The notes under the pieces were generated by a model. The model did not search any database, had not been told where the DNA came from, and worked only from the letters and a program-made list of their open reading frames with translations. This document shows positions 4,220-61,932 of a stretch of DNA of 64,000 nucleotides, piece by piece. The DNA comes from Solirubrobacterales bacterium (GTDB taxonomy: Bacteria; Actinomycetota; Thermoleophilia; Solirubrobacterales; 70-9): contig DATAEW010000034.1 of assembly GCA_036257815.1 (NCBI GenBank), positions 1,484 to 65,483 of the forward strand, given 5' to 3'. How positions within the stretch are numbered: the stretch's first letter is position 1; the number at the start of each line of letters is the position of its first letter. A program made the position numbers and the translations under genes.

Positions 4220-5029
4220 ATGGGCGCCCCCGGCGACCCCCTGGTGCTGGATCATCCGGGAATGGAACCCGAGCCGGACCTGGCCGCGGAGGCGCTGCGC
4301 CTGCTGGCGAGCATCGAGGCGGCGGAGATCGAAGCGCGGCTGATCGGCGGCATGGCGATCCGGCTGCTCGCCGGAGAGCGCTTCGACCCCATCTTCGAGC
4401 GCGAGATCGCCGACCTCGACTTCTTCTCCGTCCGCGGCGCGGGCCGCCGCCTGGGGGAGCTGCTCGCCGGCAACGGCTACGAGCCCGACGAGCGGTTCAA
4501 CGCGCTCAACGGCGCCCGGCGGCTGCTCTTCCTCGACCCCGTGCACGGTCGCCAGGTCGATGTCTTCGTCGGCAGCTTCGAGATGTGCCACACGCTGCCC
4601 CTGGCCGAGCGAATCGCCGTCCGTCCCCACACCCTGCCGGCGGCCGAGCTGCTGATGACCAAGCTGCAGATCGTCGAGCTGAATGAGAAGGACCGCGGCG
4701 ACACCTTCGCCCTGCTGCTCGCGCACGAGGTCGCCGAGGCCGACCTCGACCCGGCCGGCGCCGACGCAATCGACGCCACCCGGATCGCCGCCCTGACCTC
4801 GCGCGACTGGGGACTGCAGCGGACCTTCGAGCTGAACCTCCAGCGCCTGCGCGAGGCGGCCCCGGGGCTGCCGCTCGGGGAGGATCGGCGAGCGGCGATC
4901 GCGGACCGGATCGATCGCCTCGCCGCGACGATCGAGACGGCGCCGAAGAGCCGCAGGTGGAAGCTCCGCGAGCGGGTCGGCGAGCGGGTGCGGTGGTATG
5001 AGGAGCCTGAAGAGGTGGACCGGGGCTGA
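4220..5029 (+). CDS. Hypothetical protein, possible nucleotidyltransferase fold
   Basis: LIGGMAIRLL...DLDFF resembles the GG...D.D minimal nucleotidyltransferase signature. Begins 4 nt after the metallophosphoesterase stop. Function not established. Confidence 0.45.
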   Translation: MGAPGDPLVLDHPGMEPEPDLAAEALRLLASIEAAEIEARLIGGMAIRLLAGERFDPIFEREIADLDFFSVRGAGRRLGELLAGNGYEPDERFNALNGARRLLFLDPVHGRQVDVFVGSFEMCHTLPLAERIAVRPHTLPAAELLMTKLQIVELNEKDRGDTFALLLAHEVAEADLDPAGADAIDATRIAALTSRDWGLQRTFELNLQRLREAAPGLPLGEDRRAAIADRIDRLAATIETAPKSRRWKLRERVGERVRWYEEPEEVDRG

Positions 5030-5055
5030 GCTGAGAGCCGAGTCGCTTCGGCGGA

Positions 5056-5180
5056 CCTGGGAGGCCGGTCCCGGCAGGGGTTCCGCTTAACTTTTCCGAG
5101 GATTGCCTCCTGCTAACGCCCGGAGCGCGACGGCGGAAAAGTACAAGACGCTCCACCCCTGCCGGGACCGGCCTCCCAGG
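5056..5180. repeat. Long hairpin element: 26-bp perfect arms, 73-nt core
   Basis: cctgggaggccggtcccggcaggggt (5056-5081) is the exact reverse complement of 5155-5180. The core has the CCTCC-N10-CGGAGCG-N21-CGCTCC skeleton shared with the elements at 52084-52545. Confidence 0.7.
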
Positions 5181-5234
5181 TCTTCCAGGGACCGGCTCGG
5201 GTCGGCGCGGGGCCAGAGCTTGTGCCTGGGGGCG

Positions 5235-49801: not shown

Positions 49802-51010
49802 CTAGCCTTTGATTTCGGTCCAGGCGCGGACCCAGTCGTTGTAGTCCATGCATTCGCTTGGCCCGCCTTCTTCGCATTCGGCCAGCGGCGTCTGCCAGTA
49901 GTAGACGCGCTTCCAGAATTCCGGTTCTTCGGCGTGGTATTCCGCGCAGAAGTTCGGGTTTTCGGTTTCTCTGCAGGCCAGTTCCTGAGCCGGCGCCTCG
50001 CCGAAGTATTCCGCCACCTGGGCGTTCGCTTTCGGCGAGACGATGTAGTTCATCCACATGTACATGCAGTTGGGATGTTTGGCTTCCGAGCCGATCATCC
50101 AGGTGTCCGACCAGCCGGTCGCGCCCTCTTCGGGCAGGAAGCCCTGGCTGGCGGGGCTCGCCGCCACCGGTTCGCCTTCGCCTTTCAGGGCGAAGTACTG
50201 GTACTGCCAGGTCGTGCCGACGAGGTTCGAGCCGCTGGAGAAGCCGGCGATCTGTTCTTCGGCGCTGCCCCAGTATTCGCCGACGTTCGGCTTCTGTTCC
50301 TTCATCAGTTCGACCGCGGCGTCGAACTGTTCTTCGGTCAGCTCGTAGGGGCCTTCGATCCCCAGGCTCGGTTCATGCGCTTTCAGGTAGACCGCCGCTT
50401 CGGCGATCGACATCGGGTCGTCGTACTGGCTGATGTGGCCCTTGAATTTTGAGGCCACTTTCGGGTCCAGGGTGACGTTCCAGGACTTCGGCCCCGGCTT
50501 CACTTTGTCGGAGTTCCACATCAGGAGGTTGGCGCCACGGCCGTGCGGGATCCCGTAGGGGACGCCTTCGAAGGTGTTGTAGGGCTGTCCCTTGAGGTCG
50601 GCGAAGACCGTCTTGTAATTCGGCACCAGGTCCGTGTTGACCGGGGATACCAAGCCGGCCGCCCAGAGCCGGGCCGAGGCGTTGCCCGAGGCCGAGACCC
50701 CGTCGTACTGGCCGGTTTTCATCAGCTGGACCATTTCGTCAGAGGTGTTGCCGATCTTGTTGTTGACCTTGCATCCGGTTTCTTCTTCGAACGGCTTCAC
50801 CCATTCGGGTTCGACGTAGCCTGCCCAGGAGATCAGGGAGACTTCACCCTCGCCCTTGCCGAGCTTCTGCAGTTCTTCGCCCCCGCCGGAGCCGCCCCCG
50901 CCTGAGGTGTCGCTGCCCCCTCCGCAGGCGCTGAGAACGAGCATGAACGCGACCAGGCCGGTAACCGCCAGCCAGGCCGTTCGGGCGGGATGAGCTCCCC
51001 TTCCCCTCAT
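49802..51010 (-). CDS. Polyamine-type ABC substrate-binding lipoprotein (PotD/PotF-like)
   Basis: ATG 51010 preceded by AGGAGG; lipobox LVLSACGGG; ATGA overlap with the ATPase stop. Confidence 0.85.
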   Translation of the reverse strand: MRGRGAHPARTAWLAVTGLVAFMLVLSACGGGSDTSGGGGSGGGEELQKLGKGEGEVSLISWAGYVEPEWVKPFEEETGCKVNNKIGNTSDEMVQLMKTGQYDGVSASGNASARLWAAGLVSPVNTDLVPNYKTVFADLKGQPYNTFEGVPYGIPHGRGANLLMWNSDKVKPGPKSWNVTLDPKVASKFKGHISQYDDPMSIAEAAVYLKAHEPSLGIEGPYELTEEQFDAAVELMKEQKPNVGEYWGSAEEQIAGFSSGSNLVGTTWQYQYFALKGEGEPVAASPASQGFLPEEGATGWSDTWMIGSEAKHPNCMYMWMNYIVSPKANAQVAEYFGEAPAQELACRETENPNFCAEYHAEEPEFWKRVYYWQTPLAECEEGGPSECMDYNDWVRAWTEIKG

Positions 51011-52020
51011 GGTGCTACCTCCTGTTTCGTTGGCTTCCCCCGGATGGCGGCCGCGTGCTCGGGACGCCACCCGACAAGTACTTCGTCCCCCGCGCGAGGC
51101 GACGCGCCCTGCGACGCGGCGCCGACGTTCTGCCTCACCAGCTGCAGCTCTCCTCCCGCCTCCAGGGCGACGGTAAAGCGGGTGATCATGCCGGCGTAGG
51201 AGACGCCGACGATCCGACCACGCTCGCTGTGCATGCCGTCGGCTGAAGCTTCCCCGGTGAGCAGCTCGATCTTCTCCGGCCGGATCGTCATCCGCTCGCC
51301 GTCGCGTTCGATCACGTTCGAGACGCCGACGAAGCCGGCGACGAACTCGTTCAGCGGGTGCTCGTAGAGGTCGACCGGCGGGCTGACCTGCTCGATCCGC
51401 CCTTCGTTGAAGACGGCGATCCGGTTGCTCATCGTCAAGGCCTCGTCCTGGTCGTGGGTGACGTAGACGAAGGTGATCCCGACCTCGCTCTGGATCGTCT
51501 TCAGCTCGCTCTGCATCTGCTCGCGCAGCTTCAGGTCCAGCGCCCCGAGCGGCTCGTCGAGCAGCAGCACCTTCGGCCGGTTGACGATTGCCCGCGCCAG
51601 CGCGACCCGCTGGCGCTGACCGCCGGAGAGCTCACCGGGCTTGCGGTCGCCGTAGCCGGGCAGCCGCACCATCTCCAGCGCCTCGTCGCGCCGGCGCGTC
51701 CGCTCCTCCCTGGACACCCTGGCGATTCGCAACCCGTATTCGACGTTTTGTCCCACGCTCATATGCGGGAACAGCGCGTAGTCCTGGAAGACCGTGTTGA
51801 CCGCGCGGTCATACGGCGGCACGCCGCTGACCTCCTCGCCAGCCAGCTCGATCGCGCCGGTGGTCGGGTCCTCGAACCCGGCGATCATTCGCAGGGTCGT
51901 GGTCTTGCCGGAGCCGGAGGGTCCGAGCAGGGTGAAGAACTCGCCGCGCTGGATCTCCAGGTCGATTCCGGCAACCGCGACTACCTCACCGTATTTCTTC
52001 GTGAGGCCTTGGAGTCGGAT
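51007..52020 (-). CDS. ABC transporter ATP-binding protein (PotA-like); start codon unresolved
   Basis: Hand translation upstream of the tracked Met (51888) gives, in the same frame, DIRLQGLTKKYGEVVAVAGIDLEIQRGEFFTLLGPSGSGKTTTLRMIAGF (Walker A). LSGGQRQR and LLLDEPL lie downstream. There is no ATG/GTG/TTG between the in-frame TGA (52153-52155) and 51888. Confidence 0.75.
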   Translation of the reverse strand: MRLQGLTKKYGEVVAVAGIDLEIQRGEFFTLLGPSGSGKTTTLRMIAGFEDPTTGAIELAGEEVSGVPPYDRAVNTVFQDYALFPHMSVGQNVEYGLRIARVSREERTRRRDEALEMVRLPGYGDRKPGELSGGQRQRVALARAIVNRPKVLLLDEPLGALDLKLREQMQSELKTIQSEVGITFVYVTHDQDEALTMSNRIAVFNEGRIEQVSPPVDLYEHPLNEFVAGFVGVSNVIERDGERMTIRPEKIELLTGEASADGMHSERGRIVGVSYAGMITRFTVALEAGGELQLVRQNVGAASQGASPRAGDEVLVGWRPEHAAAIRGKPTKQEVAP

Positions 52021-52083
52021 GTCGGGCGGTGAAGCGGCTACGCCTCGGACGTTATCCGAGGCGGCTGGGAAAACAAGGACAAT

Positions 52084-52294
52084 CTGGCCGGGTGGGCTTA
52101 GACGGGGTGGAGTACGGGGGTGGGTGGGGCCGGGGCGGGTGGTGGGGCCTCCTCACTGCACTTCGGAGCGAGGAAGGTGGGTGGGGCTTACGCCCCGGAG
52201 CGGTGGACGCTCCGAATGCTGAAACGTTCGGAGGCCCACCACCGCCCCGGCCCAGCATTACGCGCACCACTCCACGGAAAGCCCACCCGGCCAG
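52084..52294. repeat. Large hairpin element A (arms of about 65-70 nt around an 84-nt core)
   Basis: ctggccgggtgggctt (52084-52099) pairs 16/16 with 52279-52294. The inner arm ggggccggggcgggtggtggggcctcc pairs with ggaggcccaccaccgccccggcc. Core is 52151-52234. Confidence 0.7.
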
Positions 52295-52321
52295 TGGCGC
52301 AAGCTTCAAGTTGAGTGCCGA

Positions 52322-52545
52322 GAAGGCTTCATCGCGCGGCACCCGGCTGGGCTGTGCGGCTGATGGGGCCGCAGGGTCTCGGATACTCCCTCCGAACGTA
52401 TCAGCACGGAGCGGGGATGGCCGCTTGCGGCGCTAGCCCGACCACGCCAATTCCCGCGGAGGTGCAGTGAGGAGGGGGTATCCGAGACCCTGCGGCCCCG
52501 ACCCCGACCTCAGTACCCAGCCGGGTGCCGCGCGATGAAGCCTTC
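52322..52545. repeat. Large hairpin element B (inverted relative to A); the right arm is the 3' end of the C40-like peptidase CDS
   Basis: 52322-52351 is the exact reverse complement of 52516-52545 (30/30). 52364-52386 pairs with 52477-52499 over a 22-nt run. The core 52389-52472, reverse-complemented, aligns with core A (52/84 ungapped by hand; both ends identical). Confidence 0.75.
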
Positions 52546-53067
52546 GTTGGAGAGGAGTTCGGTGTGCCAGCGCGGCCCGGTCCCATCGGCGTCTCCCGCG
52601 GTGTCCCAGCGGACGCCGGCGATCACGGCGTAGGCGTGGCCGGCGTTGGCGTAGACGGTGATCCAGCGCCCTTCGCCCGCCAGGCCCCATTTCTCCAGCG
52701 ACCCGGACGGCTCCGGGCTTTCGAGGAATTCGCCGCCGTGGAGGGCGTAGCTGACCGAGCCGGAGCAGTCGTAGCCGCGGTCCCACCAGCGGGCGTGGCC
52801 GCCGCCGAAGATGTAGGGCTTGGTGCGGATCCGGTTCGCCGCTTCGATCACCGCCTTGACTTTGGCGGGAGCGCTCTTCGGCGGGATCAGTTCGCCGCTG
52901 GCCAGCAGGCGCGCTTTCGCGGTCGGGGTGCATTCGTCGACTTCGGCCGGGGTCAGGCCACCGGTCGTGCAGCGAGCGGAGGCGCCGGCGGGTGCGAGCA
53001 GGGCGACCGCGAGCAGGGCCCCGGCGAATGCCAACGCCATCTTCAGCTTGTGGGTGCGCGACAGCAA
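52510..53067 (-). CDS. Secreted NlpC/P60 (C40)-like cell-wall peptidase
   Basis: TTG start with AAGGAG 8 nt upstream; signal peptide; PYIFGGGH..GYDCSGSVSYAL (Cys) and GHAYAVIAG (His). Preceded by a c-di-AMP riboswitch. Confidence 0.6.
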   Translation of the reverse strand: MLSRTHKLKMALAFAGALLAVALLAPAGASARCTTGGLTPAEVDECTPTAKARLLASGELIPPKSAPAKVKAVIEAANRIRTKPYIFGGGHARWWDRGYDCSGSVSYALHGGEFLESPEPSGSLEKWGLAGEGRWITVYANAGHAYAVIAGVRWDTAGDADGTGPRWHTELLSNEGFIARHPAGY

Positions 53068-53079
53068 ACCAATCTCCTT

Positions 53080-53211
53080 CGTCGGCCTACGGGGTTAGCT
53101 GTCGGGCTGGCGCGAAAGGAGCTTGCGCCCCCACCTCAGCTCGGTGGGTTAGCCCCGAAAACGTGGTTCCCCCGCTCCCGGCGCGCCCTTGGGCGCTTGG
53201 GATTCGGCGTC
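53080..53211 (-). promoter_or_regulatory. Cyclic-di-AMP riboswitch (ydaO-yuaA class)
   Basis: Minus-strand read: GCCGAAUCCC...GCGGGGGAACCAC..UUUUCGGGGCUAACCC...GCCAGCCCGACAGCUAACCCCGUAGGCC. This is block-for-block similar to the remembered T. tengcongensis aptamer (GCCGAAUCC, ACGGAGGAACC, UUUGGGGUUAAUC, CACCCGACAGCUAACUCCGGAGGC). It ends at the SD. Confidence 0.75.
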
Positions 53212-54179: not shown

Positions 54180-56981
<2,802 letters not shown>

Positions 56982-57017: not shown

Positions 57018-57075
57018 GACCCTCACTGCACCTGCGCGTCGGTAGCCAGGGAGGGATGCCGACGCGGCCGTTCCC
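57018..57075. repeat. Partial copy of the core of the 52084-52545 elements
   Basis: ccctcactgcacctgcgcg...gcggccgttcccc parallels cctcactgcacctccgcgg...gcggccatcccc of element B. I found no long flanking arms. Confidence 0.4.
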
Positions 57076-57531: not shown

Positions 57532-60500
57532 TCAGGCGCCGGGGGTGAGCGCGGTGAGGATGATCCGTTCCTGCTCGCGCGCGTGGGCCCCGGAGTAACC
57601 CTCGCCCGTGCTGGCACGCCCCGGGCGGCCGATGTAGGTGAGCGCCACGCCCTCGGGCAGGACGTCCGGCAGCCGACGCGACATCACCTTCCAGGCGCCC
57701 ATGTTGCGCGGCTCCTCCTGGACCCAGGCGATCTCCTTCAGGTTCGGGTAGGAGGCGATCACGCCCTGCAGCTGCTCCTTGGCGAACGGGTAGAGCATCT
57801 CGACGCGGGCGATGGCGACGTTCTCGGCGGCCTCGCGGCGCTCGCTGGCGTCGATGTCGAAGTACACCTTGCCGGTGCAGAGAACGAGGCGCTCGACCTT
57901 CTCGCGCCGCGCCGCGGTTCTCGTGTCGTCGAGGATGAAGTGGAAGTGCTCGCCGGTCAGTTGCTCGATGTCGGCGGTGGCGCGGTCGAGGCGCAGCAGC
58001 CCCTTGGGGGTGAAGACGATCAGCGGCCGCGGCTTGCGGATCAGCGCCTGGCGGCGCAGCAGGTGGAAGTACTGGGCGGCGGTGGTCGGGTAGGCGATCC
58101 GGACGTTCCCCTCGGCGCCGAGGGCGAGGAAGCGCTCGATGCGGGCGCTGGAGTGCTCCGGCCCGGAGCCCTCGTAGCCGTGCGGCAGCAGCAGGGTGAG
58201 GCGGCTGCTCTGGCCCCACTTCGACTCGCCGGAGACGATGAAGCTGTCGATGATCACCTGGGCGGCGTTGGCGAAGTCGCCGAACTGCGCCTCCCAGAGG
58301 ACGAGGGCGTTCGGGGTCGCGGTCGAGTAGCCGTACTCGAAGCCGAGGCAGGCGGTCTCCGAGAGCGGGCTGTTGTAGAGCTCGAAGGGGGCGGAGGCGT
58401 CCTGCAGGTGCTGCATCGGCGTGTACTCGAGGCCGGTGTTCTCGTCGTGCAGGACGAGGTGGCGGTGGGAGAAGGTGCCGCGCTCGGTGTCCTGGCCGGT
58501 GAGCCGGATGTGAACGCCCTCGGTGAGCAGCGAGCCGAAGGCCAGCGCCTCGGCGTGCCCGAAGTCGATCCCGCCCTGCTCGAGCGTCTCGGTGCGGCGG
58601 GCGAGCGGGCGCCGCAGCTTGCGGTGCACGTTGAAGCCCTCCGGGGTCCGCAGCAGTTCCCCGTTGAGGCCGCGCAGGCGAGCGGCCGGGACCGCGGTGT
58701 CGACCGGCGGGCTGGCGGTGCGGTCGAGCAGTTCGCCGGTGCTGGTCGTCGCGCCGGTCACGGTCGGGTCCTCGTACTCGCCCGCCTCCATCTTCCGCCG
58801 CAGTTCCTTCAGCGCCGCCGCCATCTCCTCGCGCCGCCGCTCGCCGGCCTGGCCGGCTGCCTCGGCCGAGACCGTGCCCTCCTTCATCAGCTGCTCGGCG
58901 TAGATCTCGGAGACCGGTCGGTGGGCCTTGATCTTCGCCGCCATCGTCGGCTGCGTGTAGGCCGGCTCGTCGGTCTCGTTGTGGCCGAAGCGGCGGTAGC
59001 CGATCACGTCGATCACGATGTCGCGGCCCCAGCGCTCGCGGTAGGCCATCGCCAGGCGGATCGCGGCGCTGCAGGCCTCGACGTCGTCGGCGTTGACGTG
59101 GACGATCGGCACGTTGTAACCCTTGGCCATGTCGGCGGCGAAGGGGGTGGAGCGGGCCTCGTCGGGGTCGGTGGTGAAGCCGACCTGGTTGTTCTGGATG
59201 ATGTGGACGGTGCCGCCCGTCGTGTAGCCCTTCAGCGCCTGCAGGTTGAAGGTCTCGGCGACCACTCCCTGGGCCGGGAAGGCGGCATCGCCATGGAGCA
59301 GCACCGGCACCGCCCGGGCCGTGTCCTGGTTGATCGTCGGTCCGTCGAACTCCGATTGCAGGTAGCGGGCGCCGCCGGTGACCACCGGGTCGACAAACTC
59401 GAGGTGGCTCGGGTTCGGGTAGAGGCGGACCGAGATCTTCTCGCCCTCGCTGGTCTCGTAGATCCCGCGGTGGCCGTAGTGGTACTTGACGTCGCCGGTG
59501 CCGCCGTGCGGGATCGCCGCCACCGCCTTCACCGCCTCGAGTCGCTTGGAGCCCTCGAACTCGGCGAGGATCGACTGGACGGAGCGGCCGAGGTTGTGGG
59601 CGAGGACGCTGAGCCGGCCGCGGTGGGCCATCCCGAAGACGACCTCCTCGGCGCCGGCACGGTGCGCTAGCGTGACCAGCTCGTCGAGCATCGGCACGAT
59701 CACGTCGAGCCCCTCGATCGAGAACATCTTCTGTCCCAGGTAGGCCCTCTCGAGGAAGCGCTCGAACTCGAAGACGTCGATCAGCCGGTCGAGCAGGCGC
59801 TTTTTCTCCTCACCGCTGAGCGGCTGGCGGTGGGCGCCGGTCTCGATCATCTCGCGCAGCCAGATCCGCTGCTGGTGCGAGGAGAGGTGCTCGAACTGGT
59901 AGCCGATCGTCCCGCAGTAGGCGGTGCGCAGCCGGGGCAGCGCCTCCAGCAGCGTTTCGCCCGGGACGCCGACCCGCAGGATCGAGGCGGGGATCCGCGA
60001 CATCAGCTCCGGGGTGAGGTTGACGTTCTCCGGCTGCAGCGCCGGGTCGCCCTTGGGCTCGGAACCCAGCGGATCGAGCTGGGCGGCGAGGTGGCCGTGG
60101 GTCCGGTAGGCCTTGAGGATCGAGGTCGCGGCCTGGACCGCCTGCAGCAGCTCCTCGTCGACCTGGCCCGGGGCGGTGCTCGGTTCGGCGCTCGCGCCGG
60201 GGGCGCCGAGCGGCGGCGCCGAGGCGGAGGCGGGGTGGGCGGCGGCGACCGGGCCGGCGTCGATCCCGAGGTCGGCGGCCACCGACTCGTAGAAGCCGTC
60301 CTCGCCCTGCAGCAGCTGCTCGACCCGGCGCAGGAAGGCGCCGGACTCGGCGCCCTGGATCACCCGGTGGTCGTAGGTCGAGGTCATCGTCATCACCTTC
60401 GAGACCCCGAGTTGCTTCAGCCGGTCCGGCGAGGCGTGCGCCCACTCCGGCGGGTAGGCGATCGAGCCGGTGGCGACGATCGCGCTCTGGCCGGCGAGCA

Positions 60501-61932
60501 GCCGCGGCACCGAGGCGACCGTGCCGATCCCGCCCGGGTTGGTGAGCGAGATGTTCGTGCCCTGGAAGTCGTCGGCGGTCAGCTTGTTCTCGCGCGTCTT
60601 CGCGATCAGCTCCTCGTAGTGAGAGTGGAAGGAGCCGAAGTCGAGGTCCTGCGCGTTCTTGATCGCCGGCACCATCAGGCTGTGCGAGCCGTCCTTGCGT
60701 TCGACGTCGACGGCGATGCCGAGGTTGACCGGGCCGTTCTCGATCGCGTAGGGCTTGCCGTCGCGCTGCTCGAATACCCGCACCATCACCGGAAACTCCC
60801 TGGTCGCCTGGACGATCGCCCAGGCGATGAGGTGGGTGAAGGAGACCTTCAGGCCGCGCTCCTTGAGCAGCGGGTTGATCGCCCTGCGCTTGGCGTCGAG
60901 GGTGTCGACGGCGATCGTCCGGAACGAGGTCGCGGTCGGGACCGCGCGGCTCTCGTCCATCGCCTTGGCCAGCATCGCGGCGGGCCCGCGCAGCTGCTTC
61001 TCCGCGCCGGCGAGGGCGGGGGCGGCCGAGGCGCCGTTGCCGGCATTGAGCACGTCCTCCTTGGTCACCTTCGATCCAGGACCGGTGCCCTGCACCGAGG
61101 TGAGATCTACACCGTTGGCGGCAGCGACCCGGCGAGCCACAGGGGTGGCGCGAACGTCGGCGGACGGGGCGCCGTTGCCGGCGGGTCCTGCCGCCGCAGG
61201 GGACCCCCCACCCCCTCCGGTAGCTAAAGCTTCCTCGGGGGTGGGCCCCCCTACGGCGTCACCCGCCGGAGACGCCGCACCAGCAGACGTTTCCATTTCC
61301 GCCAGCGGCTGACCGACCTTGACCTCGTCATCGACTTGGGCCAAGAGCTTGGTAATCAGCCCGCTCGCGGGGGCTGGTACCTCGGCATCGACCTTGTCCG
61401 TGGACACCTCGACGACGGTGTCGCCCTCGCTGACCGCATCCCCCTCAGCTACATGCCACTCCAGGACGACGCCCTCGGTCACGGACTCGCCCATCTCCGG
61501 CATCGCGATGACAAGCTTTTCGCCGGCGGTTCCGTTGCCGTCGCCGGAGCTTTCGTCGGACCCGGACGCTTCTCCCGCGGGTGGCGCGGTAGGGGGGACC
61601 CCCCCTGAGGAAGCTTTAGCTACCGGAAGGGGGGGTGGGTCCCCTGCCGCGACAGGACCCGCGGGTGATGCGCTTGGTCCTTCCCCGGCTTCCATCTCCG
61701 CCAAAGGGGCACCCACGGCAATCTCGTCATCGACCTGCGCCAGGATCCTGGTGATCACGCCGTCGGCCGGCGCCGGCACCTCGGCGTCGACCTTGTCGGT
61801 GGAAACCTCGACCACCGTGTCGCCCTCGCTGACGCTGTCGCCCTCCGCCACGTGCCACTCGAGGACGATGCCCTCGGTCACCGACTCGCCCATCCCGGGC
61901 ATCGCTATCTGCACGGTGGCCGTGTCTGGCAT
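57532..61932 (-). CDS. kgd: Fused 2-oxoglutarate dehydrogenase: two lipoyl domains, E3-binding domain, E2o acyltransferase core and E1o
   Basis: Two copies of MPxMGESVTEG.VLEWHVAEGD..VSTDKVDAEVPAP; PSBD ATPVARRVAAANGVDL; E2 core DHRVIQGAESGAFL; E1o region (RGRLSVLAH, HGDAAF, YGH..GPEHSSARIERFL). 1466 aa. Confidence 0.9.
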   Translation of the reverse strand: MPDTATVQIAMPGMGESVTEGIVLEWHVAEGDSVSEGDTVVEVSTDKVDAEVPAPADGVITRILAQVDDEIAVGAPLAEMEAGEGPSASPAGPVAAGDPPPLPVAKASSGGVPPTAPPAGEASGSDESSGDGNGTAGEKLVIAMPEMGESVTEGVVLEWHVAEGDAVSEGDTVVEVSTDKVDAEVPAPASGLITKLLAQVDDEVKVGQPLAEMETSAGAASPAGDAVGGPTPEEALATGGGGGSPAAAGPAGNGAPSADVRATPVARRVAAANGVDLTSVQGTGPGSKVTKEDVLNAGNGASAAPALAGAEKQLRGPAAMLAKAMDESRAVPTATSFRTIAVDTLDAKRRAINPLLKERGLKVSFTHLIAWAIVQATREFPVMVRVFEQRDGKPYAIENGPVNLGIAVDVERKDGSHSLMVPAIKNAQDLDFGSFHSHYEELIAKTRENKLTADDFQGTNISLTNPGGIGTVASVPRLLAGQSAIVATGSIAYPPEWAHASPDRLKQLGVSKVMTMTSTYDHRVIQGAESGAFLRRVEQLLQGEDGFYESVAADLGIDAGPVAAAHPASASAPPLGAPGASAEPSTAPGQVDEELLQAVQAATSILKAYRTHGHLAAQLDPLGSEPKGDPALQPENVNLTPELMSRIPASILRVGVPGETLLEALPRLRTAYCGTIGYQFEHLSSHQQRIWLREMIETGAHRQPLSGEEKKRLLDRLIDVFEFERFLERAYLGQKMFSIEGLDVIVPMLDELVTLAHRAGAEEVVFGMAHRGRLSVLAHNLGRSVQSILAEFEGSKRLEAVKAVAAIPHGGTGDVKYHYGHRGIYETSEGEKISVRLYPNPSHLEFVDPVVTGGARYLQSEFDGPTINQDTARAVPVLLHGDAAFPAQGVVAETFNLQALKGYTTGGTVHIIQNNQVGFTTDPDEARSTPFAADMAKGYNVPIVHVNADDVEACSAAIRLAMAYRERWGRDIVIDVIGYRRFGHNETDEPAYTQPTMAAKIKAHRPVSEIYAEQLMKEGTVSAEAAGQAGERRREEMAAALKELRRKMEAGEYEDPTVTGATTSTGELLDRTASPPVDTAVPAARLRGLNGELLRTPEGFNVHRKLRRPLARRTETLEQGGIDFGHAEALAFGSLLTEGVHIRLTGQDTERGTFSHRHLVLHDENTGLEYTPMQHLQDASAPFELYNSPLSETACLGFEYGYSTATPNALVLWEAQFGDFANAAQVIIDSFIVSGESKWGQSSRLTLLLPHGYEGSGPEHSSARIERFLALGAEGNVRIAYPTTAAQYFHLLRRQALIRKPRPLIVFTPKGLLRLDRATADIEQLTGEHFHFILDDTRTAARREKVERLVLCTGKVYFDIDASERREAAENVAIARVEMLYPFAKEQLQGVIASYPNLKEIAWVQEEPRNMGAWKVMSRRLPDVLPEGVALTYIGRPGRASTGEGYSGAHAREQERIILTALTPGA
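61183..61262. repeat. 80-nt palindromic element inside kgd (linker after lipoyl domain 2)
   Basis: Reverse complement of 61581-61660 (70/80 identical by ungapped hand count). Internally palindromic G/C runs flank ccggtagctaaagcttcctc. Confidence 0.8.
61581..61660. repeat. 80-nt palindromic element inside kgd (linker after lipoyl domain 1), opposite orientation
   Basis: See 61183-61262. Centre reads gaggaagctttagctaccgga on the plus strand. Confidence 0.8.

Follow-up and report, generated by a model that had tools for sequence, protein, structure and literature searches.

Paired hairpins at a gene end in a Solirubrobacterales genome and a candidate family of 3'-end palindromic elements

The stretch of DNA analysed here, referred to as the window, comprises 64,000 nt of contig DATAEW010000034.1 from a Solirubrobacterales bacterium (assembly GCA_036257815.1). 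Two giant hairpins, A (52084–52294) and B (52322–52545), lie next to each other in the window between two minus-strand genes, which encode a 185-amino-acid (185-aa) protein and an ABC-transporter ATPase. Judged from sequence comparison, A and B appear to be two diverged members of an undescribed hairpin family of ~125 nt, here named type 1, in an uncultured lineage of Solirubrobacterales. The element belongs to a known class, the intergenic palindromic repeats, and it is the family itself that is undescribed. Type 1 is probably best read as a family of hairpins at gene 3' ends that resemble repetitive extragenic palindromes (REPs) and ERIC sequences, with stems that are maintained and extended by fold-back template switching. 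Its molecular function would be that of an RNA element of the 3' untranslated region (3'-UTR) or of a protein site.

Structure, distribution and position of type 1

All arms that the initial annotation assigned to the two hairpins are recovered by a repeat finder. The 501-nt region folds into two giant hairpins on both strands, with z scores of −13.1 and −15.2 for the two strands relative to shuffled sequences, and none of 100 shuffles folds as well. The cores of A and B are homologous in opposite orientation, as first proposed. Positions 52148–52194 align with 52429–52475 (47 nt, 70%) and positions 52217–52234 with 52389–52406 (18 nt, 94%). A blastn comparison of A with B aligns 138 nt at 67% identity (E = 4.5e-9).

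In an exact-pattern scan of one genome per species, there are 23 matches in 17 stretches, all of which are from Solirubrobacterales or 'Actinomycetes' metagenome-assembled genomes (MAGs). Each genome contains one to four matches. A covariance model, R1, built from 27 copies recovers both A and B as well as partner copies that the pattern missed. A looser scan of metagenomes followed by R1 confirms 20 further copies in 14 contigs, which brings the family total to 49; among the 80 pattern matches listed for the metagenome loci, 60 were chance matches and were discarded after the R1 search. The initial annotation had made its reading depend on the existence of further copies, and a covariance-model search, as it had proposed, finds them. 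All 49 copies are from Solirubrobacterales MAGs or soil metagenomes, and the scan of viral contigs contains no match to the family. At permissive thresholds, a search of Rfam 15 with the window region and five loci with canonical copies returns only sub-threshold noise from plant miRNA precursors. Literature searches for the motif strings and for repeats of Solirubrobacter or Thermoleophilia brought up nothing relevant.

The type-1 unit is composed of a stem of 22–28 bp and an interior of ~75 nt. The 5' strand of its asymmetric internal loop (CTGCACCTCG) is identical in 47 of the 49 copies, and the 3' strand (CTCATGCTGA[T/G]ACG) is present in 45. These loop motifs are also conserved in copies that were recovered by the model and not by the pattern. 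Outside the loop, the stem is G+C-rich, and most copies across the family share a loose G-rich arm pattern, for example GGGGAGGGGcGGGTACCCCCTT. The helix P3 (6 bp) lies inside the loop, as does a variable apical region in which GGCTGnCGCC recurs.

The copies cluster by orthologous locus across species and not by genome; they are therefore old and vertically retained. Two paralogues from a single genome (L016_4421 and L022_42, OY970074.1) have a variable core that is 94% identical and common arms of ~24 bp but unrelated flanks, and the inner ~24 bp therefore belongs to the element. Because this inner stem travels with the element, the general design first proposed, a conserved interior enclosed by unrelated and locus-specific arms, does not hold. 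As had been noted, the arms of A are unlike those of B, but the inner arms of 22–28 bp are related across the family and are common to paralogues. Those of A and B looked unrelated because these two copies are the most divergent family members. The CCTCC-N13/15-CGGAGCG skeleton that was described from the window is present in these two divergent copies but is not a feature of the family.

The closing stems covary strongly, in agreement with the earlier suggestion. In the 25-bp stem, both sides have changed in 24 of the 25 pairs, and 94% of cells remain paired. P3 also covaries (GGAGGG/CCCTCC, GCAGAG/CTCTGC, GGCGCG/CGCGCC and others). Neither the 500 shuffles nor the slid controls include a case that comes near the observed values for the stem or for P3. 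The 4 nt adjoining the loop covary as well (AACG/CGTT, CGAA/TTCG, CCGG/CCGG, CGGG/CCCG), and the canonical form at this position, CTCA/TTCG, retains a T-C and a C-T mismatch. At stem positions 5–24 of the 49 copies (980 cells), 959 cells are Watson-Crick pairs, 2 are G-U, 10 are A-C and 9 are other combinations. The near absence of G-U, together with the perfect multi-nucleotide copies of flanking sequence described below, is a DNA-level signature. The structured-RNA reading put forward initially is supported by the covariation but, as a purely RNA-level account, is strained by the two G-U cells.

Other structural readings were tried and rejected. A helix 'P2' (TCA..GCA with TGC.TGA) was dropped, as metagenome variants without TCA showed that the partner of the 4 nt outside the loop is instead the 4-nt stretch past ACG. 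Hammerhead, twister and K-turn motifs, suggested by CUGAUA and CUGA in the sequence, were discarded because, as judged by eye, their defining nucleotides are absent. A small open reading frame (ORF) or Shine-Dalgarno sequence in the core was also discarded, as the ATG of some cores is not conserved.

In 34 of the 49 copies, a co-oriented ORF ends 5–48 nt (typically ~13 nt) before the 5' arm; this count is from an ORF filter that overlooked several further obvious cases. The upstream ORFs belong to at least 15 gene families, including patatin-like lipase, acyl-CoA ligase, RNase J, citrate synthase and carboxyl transferase. A single copy among the 49 lies beside the end of an opposite-strand gene. 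Convergent genes carry one element each, and head-to-head pairs are therefore frequent. AAGCT or AGCTT, often as cGGAAGCTTc, is present within 45 nt downstream of the 3' arm in 24 of the 49 copies and upstream in 3 (background 6.5%). Where outer arms exist, this tail motif lies outside them. Family members lack a T-run after the 3' arm, and there are no sites resembling a canonical intrinsic terminator in 51900–52700.

Outer arms at filled and empty sites

Some copies have additional, locus-specific arms outside the inner stem. Outer-arm scores exceed the 95th percentile of the control in 13 of 30 copies (~40%), and the remaining ~60% have no outer arm. The flank that is copied differs by locus. 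In B it is the last codons of the 185-aa gene, of which the left arm is an exact inverted copy over 30 nt, as the initial annotation had observed; beyond these 30 nt, weaker pairing extends across the last codon and the stop codon. The arm of A copies sequence from upstream of the ABC gene, and past the perfect 16 nt weaker pairing goes inward to ~68 nt. At the patatin, RNase J and acyl-CoA-ligase loci, the outer arms copy 3' coding ends, stop codon included. Direct-repeat scores between left and right flanks have a median of 13, equal to that of the controls, and thus give no sign of a target-site duplication. Direct repeats at the locus of a Zn-ribbon gene were considered as such a duplication and did not generalise.

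In the relatives L001–L005, whose homologue of the 185-aa protein is 87% identical, and in L028 (88%), both elements or at least B are present in the same place and orientation. In L006 (80%), L024 and L025 (82–83%) and L029 (79%), the site is empty: the intergenic region is 115–210 nt long and contains at most a small plain hairpin. At all four empty sites, the native gene end, including the coding sequence that forms the native arm of B, and the downstream flank are present and the inverted copies are absent. The homologue of the native arm of A adjoins ..ATTGTCCTTGC.. at the L006, L026 and L001 sites. The claim that outer arms were manufactured from flanking DNA is therefore upheld.

The same intergenic site contains other hairpins in some relatives. 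In L026 (an 81% relative), a different nested hairpin occupies positions 2058–2332, and its outer arm (GCGGCTTAGC...GCTAAGCCGC) is inverted native downstream flank; the site shared by L026 and the window suggests a recurrent landing place. The plain hairpin at the empty sites of L029 (2058–2120) and L024 (2058–2110) has the form CCACCCCGGCC-AACC-GGCCGGGGTGG, then GTTTGTCC / GTTTGTCCTTGC. It may be a terminator-like hairpin that arose through inverted copying of this kind. The empty site of L006 contains the C-rich half only, around a CCGGCCGG mini-palindrome.

Arm length and arm sequence differ between orthologous filled sites. The arm of A is 68 nt long in the window, whereas in L001 it measures 88 nt and extends 24 nt deeper into the host flank. 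The gene-side arm of B in the window has 4 differences in 30 nt from that of L001 and 2 in 30 from that of L028, and the window's own two arms are identical at 30 of 30 positions. By this comparison, the perfect 30-nt arm of the window is apparently younger than the split from its relatives. In L001, a coding change from TTC ATC to TAC GTC is mirrored in its own inverted copy and is unique among the relatives read (L006, L024–L026 and L028). From the differences in arm length and the mirrored changes, it follows that copying or arm-to-arm conversion continued after the lineages split. The empty sites, together with arm lengths that differ by lineage, further imply that host flank was copied in inverted form, to give the outer arms, once the element was already in place. 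This order of events is a better fit than copying during the insertion itself. An insertion mechanism that itself generates the inverted duplication, as proposed initially, is not congruent with the ~60% of copies that have no outer arm or with an arm reach that differs between orthologues.

Explanations for the stems

These observations are probably best accounted for by a two-level model, in which type 1 is a REP/ERIC-like family of 3'-end hairpins. Selection would act on the loop and on the long stem, and template switching would supply the perfect pairing and the growth of the stem. The unit that is inherited and occasionally relocated would consist of the near-invariant loop, the variable apical hairpin region and the perfect, G+C-rich stem of 22–28 bp. 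It would be placed a few bases past a stop codon, in the orientation of the gene, and be transcribed as the end of the mRNA. There the hairpin may act as a barrier by which the 3' end is defined or protected, or it may bind a protein via the conserved loop, in line with the action proposed for REP and ERIC elements (PMC3733652). The strict co-orientation with the gene, and a loop that stays invariant at fixed loci, favour a role linked to transcription, the simplest of which would be that of a 3'-UTR hairpin.

Stem pairing would be kept by fold-back (intrastrand) template switching at the DNA level, in replication or repair, and not by slow compensatory selection at the RNA level. The nascent strand would snap back on the hairpin and copy the opposite arm, so that mismatches become Watson-Crick pairs in one step. 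If synthesis continued past the end of the stem, the host flank would be duplicated in inverted form on the opposite side, and the exact 30-nt copy of B and the 16-nt copy of A may have been acquired in this way. Copies that overwrite a gene end or the promoter of a neighbour would be lost, and the survivors would be those written into spacer.

Fold-back template switching is known from quasipalindrome correction in Escherichia coli. It has been proposed to create and maintain the perfect stems of RNA hairpins (Monttinen and Loytynoja 2022, PMC8794818). Hairpins of that origin resemble type 1 in the inverted copy of adjacent sequence made in one event, in 'compensatory' changes without intermediates and in Watson-Crick stems. 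In the window, the inverted copies of adjacent sequence are perfect (30/30 and 16/16) and are absent from the empty state in L006, L024, L025 and L029. Cells of the kind expected as intermediates of stepwise change are rare in the stems (959 Watson-Crick cells against 2 G-U and 10 A-C), and lineage-specific events include the two mirrored coding changes of L001 and the arm extents that differ between L001 and the window. The published cases are mainly from rRNA, eukaryotic genomes and reporter assays, whereas here the process appears to act recurrently on one natural bacterial family, to which it adds arms of 16–100 nt that include coding sequence.

Several points weigh against the template-switching model of a 3'-end hairpin. 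Transcription, 3'-end formation and a protein partner are all inferred. Stems made only of Watson-Crick pairs fit a DNA function, as a single-stranded DNA hairpin, equally well. The hairpin has no U-tract, unlike a canonical intrinsic terminator, and the AAGCT-containing tail motif is unaccounted for by fold-back synthesis. Element A and its L001 orthologue lie antisense, upstream of the ABC gene, and are an exception to the 3'-UTR rule; their placement suggests that pairs can arrive as a unit or that local inverted duplication takes place. The patatin locus has an old outer inverted copy, with the same divergence from the gene in four species, and homogenisation is therefore episodic and not continuous. 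The substitutions that speak for arm-to-arm conversion are few (two mirrored changes, and 0 differences in 30 nt where a few would be expected).

A selfish, non-autonomous transposon, of the kind of a miniature inverted-repeat transposable element (MITE) or a REP, is an unlikely alternative, although a number of observations fit it. The stem would be the terminal inverted repeat (TIR) for a transposase encoded elsewhere (a HUH/Y1 RAYT-like or a DDE enzyme), the loop or the AAGCT tail would be the site of binding or cleavage, the position at gene ends would reflect target preference or tolerance, and the flank copies would be by-products of insertion. Such an element would explain the near-identical paralogues of one genome, with common arms and different flanks, and the different element in the same intergenic site of L026. 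It would also explain other hairpin families that have similar G-rich arms and different cores, including hairpin C of the window (5054–5182), and Watson-Crick-only stems are expected of single-stranded DNA hairpins. The tail motif, a short distance 3' of the hairpin, recalls the cleavage sites at the ends of IS200/IS605 elements. REPs have the same genomic distribution (PMC3733652). Against a transposon, there is no target-site duplication, with direct-repeat scores at control level, and copy number is low at one to four pattern matches per genome. The arms vary freely with compensation, unlike conserved TIRs bound by a transposase. The loop is invariant at orthologous loci across species, which points to purifying selection at fixed sites and not to neutral decay, and the elements keep a strict orientation with respect to the gene (34 to 1). 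A Y1 transposase was not found in 233 kb of DNA, although the test was weak: with an IS200 TnpA and an E. coli RAYT as tblastn queries, nothing scored below E = 0.8. An IS481-like (rve-type) transposase gene lies between a hairpin pair at the patatin/acyl-CoA-ligase locus of one genome (L016 4602–5585). It was considered as the parent insertion sequence (IS) or transposase of type 1 and rejected as an unrelated insertion.

Like REP, BIME and REPIN elements (GTAG- and CGTC-tagged families, PMC3733652), type-1 elements are hairpin-forming intergenic repeats, located just downstream of ORFs, between unidirectional or convergent genes and often as head-to-head dimers. The two groups also have in common a presumed action as transcribed 3' hairpins and the presence of some relatives inside genes, including repair genes. 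REPs are 20–40 nt long, with stems of 8–9 bp, tiny loops and a conserved stem, and have hundreds of copies, often with a RAYT gene; type 1 is ~125 nt long, with a variable stem, and has a low copy number. The conserved part of type 1 is the internal loop, and its stems reach into host flank. It lacks the terminal GTAG/CGTC tag, its conserved motifs being internal to the big stem. CGTC is found only inside the cores of the type-2 and type-3 hairpins described below, on the antisense strand, and this is a resemblance to the REP tag and not a match.

ERIC/IRU, NEMIS/Correia, RUP and other MITEs share with type 1 the size class (~70–300 nt) and a long imperfect hairpin when transcribed. Such MITEs lie in transcribed intergenic regions and affect mRNA ends and stability. 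They have no sequence similarity to type 1 and are from a different phylum. MITEs have sequence-conserved TIRs and target-site duplications and decay at fixed sites, whereas type 1 has no detected duplication, strictly compensated arms and a loop that is invariant across species. Type-1 arms have a loose G-rich consensus and vary with compensation, and no parent IS was seen. The attC sites of integrons are also structured, imperfect palindromes right after a co-oriented gene, with structure more conserved than sequence, and attC works as a single-stranded DNA hairpin. Type 1 differs from attC in the absence of RYYYAAC/GTTRRRY boxes (the stem-adjoining ACGTTCG has C at the fourth position), of cassette arrays and of an integrase, and its neighbours are syntenic housekeeping genes.

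A purely RNA-level element is improbable. As a cis-acting 3'-UTR RNA or a small RNA, it would be under ordinary compensatory selection, and the flank copies would be incidental. The strong covariation of two helices around an invariant internal loop, the strict co-orientation with the upstream gene and the retention at orthologous loci are all as expected of such an element. The two G-U pairs in 980 stem cells, no more than the 10 A-C, are unlike RNA stems, and a perfect 30-nt inverted coding copy is beyond the reach of point mutation. A and its L001 counterpart are also antisense to every neighbouring gene.

It is similarly doubtful that the loop is a docking site for a dedicated protein (a nickase, a HUH enzyme or a polymerase-associated factor) that primes snap-back synthesis on the extruded hairpin. 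If this were so, type 1 would represent a new kind of mobile or self-maintaining element, which would include the type-2 and type-3 hairpins and the in-frame intragenic copies described below. Its stem would be regenerated from any flanking DNA by active 'palindromising' and not by passive replication error.

There is very little to be said for a third origin, in which cores were inserted into the loops of pre-existing terminator hairpins and all arms are native host sequence. The native hairpin CCACCCCGGCC-AACC-GGCCGGGGTGG, then GTTTGTCC, is at this position in the empty L029 and L024 sites, and the elements occupy the positions expected of terminators. For the inner arms this origin is largely refuted, as they have a family consensus and are common to paralogues at unrelated loci. 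Neither the inverted copy of the coding end nor that of the ABC-side flank is present at any of the four empty sites, and the length of the outer arm differs between orthologous filled sites. An assembly artefact from fold-back chimeric reads, which the initial annotation had itself named as a danger, has practically no chance of being the explanation: three short-read contigs end inside element B (L002, L004 and L028), but the two-element architecture is read through in the independent assemblies L001, L003 and L005 and recurs in at least five independent JGI (Joint Genome Institute) metagenome assemblies (L001–L005 and L028), the 49 members come from many projects, including chromosome-level and multi-megabase MAGs, and the covariation is coherent across copies.

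The window site, related hairpins and significance

The features of the paired hairpins and their neighbouring genes are listed in Table 1. Element B begins 14 nt past the stop codon of the co-oriented 185-aa gene. Element A is antisense to both neighbouring genes and has no co-oriented gene upstream; its stem and loop are the most degenerate among the 49 copies, with many stem mismatches.

Table 1. Coordinates of the putative type-1 elements, their arms and the adjoining genes in the window
Feature	Position	Strand	Remarks
Element B (type-1 unit: internal loop, apical region, own stem of ~24 bp)	52369–52495	−	Covariance model R1, 102.4 bits, E = 1.4e-18
B internal loop, 5' strand	52458–52467	−	CTGCACCTCC (family consensus CTGCACCTCG)
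B internal loop, 3' strand	52397–52410	−	TCCGTGCTGATACG (family consensus CTCATGCTGA[T/G]ACG)
B inner arms	52365–52393 / 52471–52499		29 nt, 97% complementary (repeat finder)
B outer arm, native side	52516–52545	−	Codons −11 to −2 of the 185-aa gene (EGFIARHPAG)
B outer arm, derived side	52322–52351	−	30-nt inverted copy of the gene 3' end, 100%
Element A (second type-1 copy)	52127–52253	+	R1, 90.8 bits, E = 3.3e-16
A loop motifs	52156–52165; 52213–52226	+	CTGCACTTCG; CGAATGCTGAAACG
A inner arms	52128–52146 / 52235–52253		19 nt, 79% complementary
A outer arm, native side	52279–52294	+	AAGCCCACCCGGCCAG, host sequence upstream of the ABC ATPase gene
A outer arm, derived side	52084–52099	+	16-nt inverted copy of host flank, 100%
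Spacer between the hairpins	52295–52321	.	Contains AAGCTT (52301–52306)
185-aa gene	52510–53067	−	3' end forms the B outer arm
ABC-transporter ATPase gene	51007–52032	−	Downstream of the A/B pair; PF00005 and PF08402 in orthologues

The 185-aa protein has no Pfam match, and the label 'C40-like peptidase' that it was given initially is putative. A Solirubrobacterales MAG encodes a protein with 100% identity to it. A c-di-AMP (ydaO/yuaA) riboswitch (RF00379) is located directly upstream of its gene, at 53069–53200 on the minus strand; the match of 54.3 bits is above the gathering score and is clipped by the edge of the searched stretch. The start codon of the ABC ATPase gene is uncertain: conserved coding begins at ~52020, and the window has GTA where relatives have GTG. 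In the leader of this gene, a small hairpin with a covarying stem, CTCGGATAACGTCCGAG (~52040–52062, minus strand), is kept at the equivalent position in all relatives (L001, L006, L024, L026 and L029) and is a possible regulatory element.

The third hairpin of the window, C (5054–5182), has perfect arms of 28 bp and a core of 73 nt. It lies between convergent genes, 25 nt past the stop codon of a plus-strand gene (4220–5029). With L014 4384–4497 and L007 5599–5719, it forms a 'type 3' family (..CTTAACTTTTyy...rrAAAAGTACAAGACGyTCC). A 'type 2' is recognised by the signature ..GGGATTTTTGCCGGGAGCC..GGCACTGCAAAAATCAGGACGCC. From a hairpin census and weak model matches, there are further hairpin families, type 2 among them, with G-rich, perfect stems of 20–29 bp and unrelated cores of ~70–80 nt, at L007 949–1077 and 5375–5498, L018 7832–7932, L008 809–919, L010 3589–3716, L013 3795–3902 and L022 826–950. 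The last of these hairpins is inside a helicase ORF. The occurrence of several hairpin families with G-rich stems suggests a superfamily in these genomes.

A different hairpin element of ~98 nt is present in two inverted copies (87%) at 61178–61275 and 61568–61665 of the window. Both are inside a minus-strand gene (57532–61932) that encodes a Kgd/OdhA-like protein of 1466 amino acids, in which they encode Pro/Gly/Ala-rich linkers around the second lipoyl domain. Another genome has the same element in frame within an Lhr-like helicase ORF (L022 1394–1490, 89% over 99 nt). As an intragenic palindrome that is open in both orientations, it resembles the Rickettsia palindromic elements (RPE) and intragenic REPs. 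The motif CCTCACTGCACC is also present at 57021–57031, in sense orientation, 40 nt past an aconitase gene (stop at 56981) and beside an unrelated small hairpin. This site is unscored by R1 and may be a chance occurrence or a decayed remnant.

Type 1 adds an undescribed family of structured repeats, apparently part of a superfamily, to a major uncultured lineage of soil actinobacteria. Its signature is unusually clean: the internal loop is invariant, and the helices on either side of it covary almost exclusively through Watson-Crick pairs. On the practical side, type-1 hairpins are breakpoints of short-read assemblies, as in the contigs L002, L004 and L028 that terminate inside B. The family provides a natural bacterial system in which the birth and growth of hairpin stems can be read from filled and empty orthologous sites. 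It bears on the origin of long perfect stems and terminator-like hairpins and on 'compensatory' evolution without intermediates. The copying extends into coding sequence, and the maintenance of a hairpin could in principle rewrite the C-terminus of a protein.

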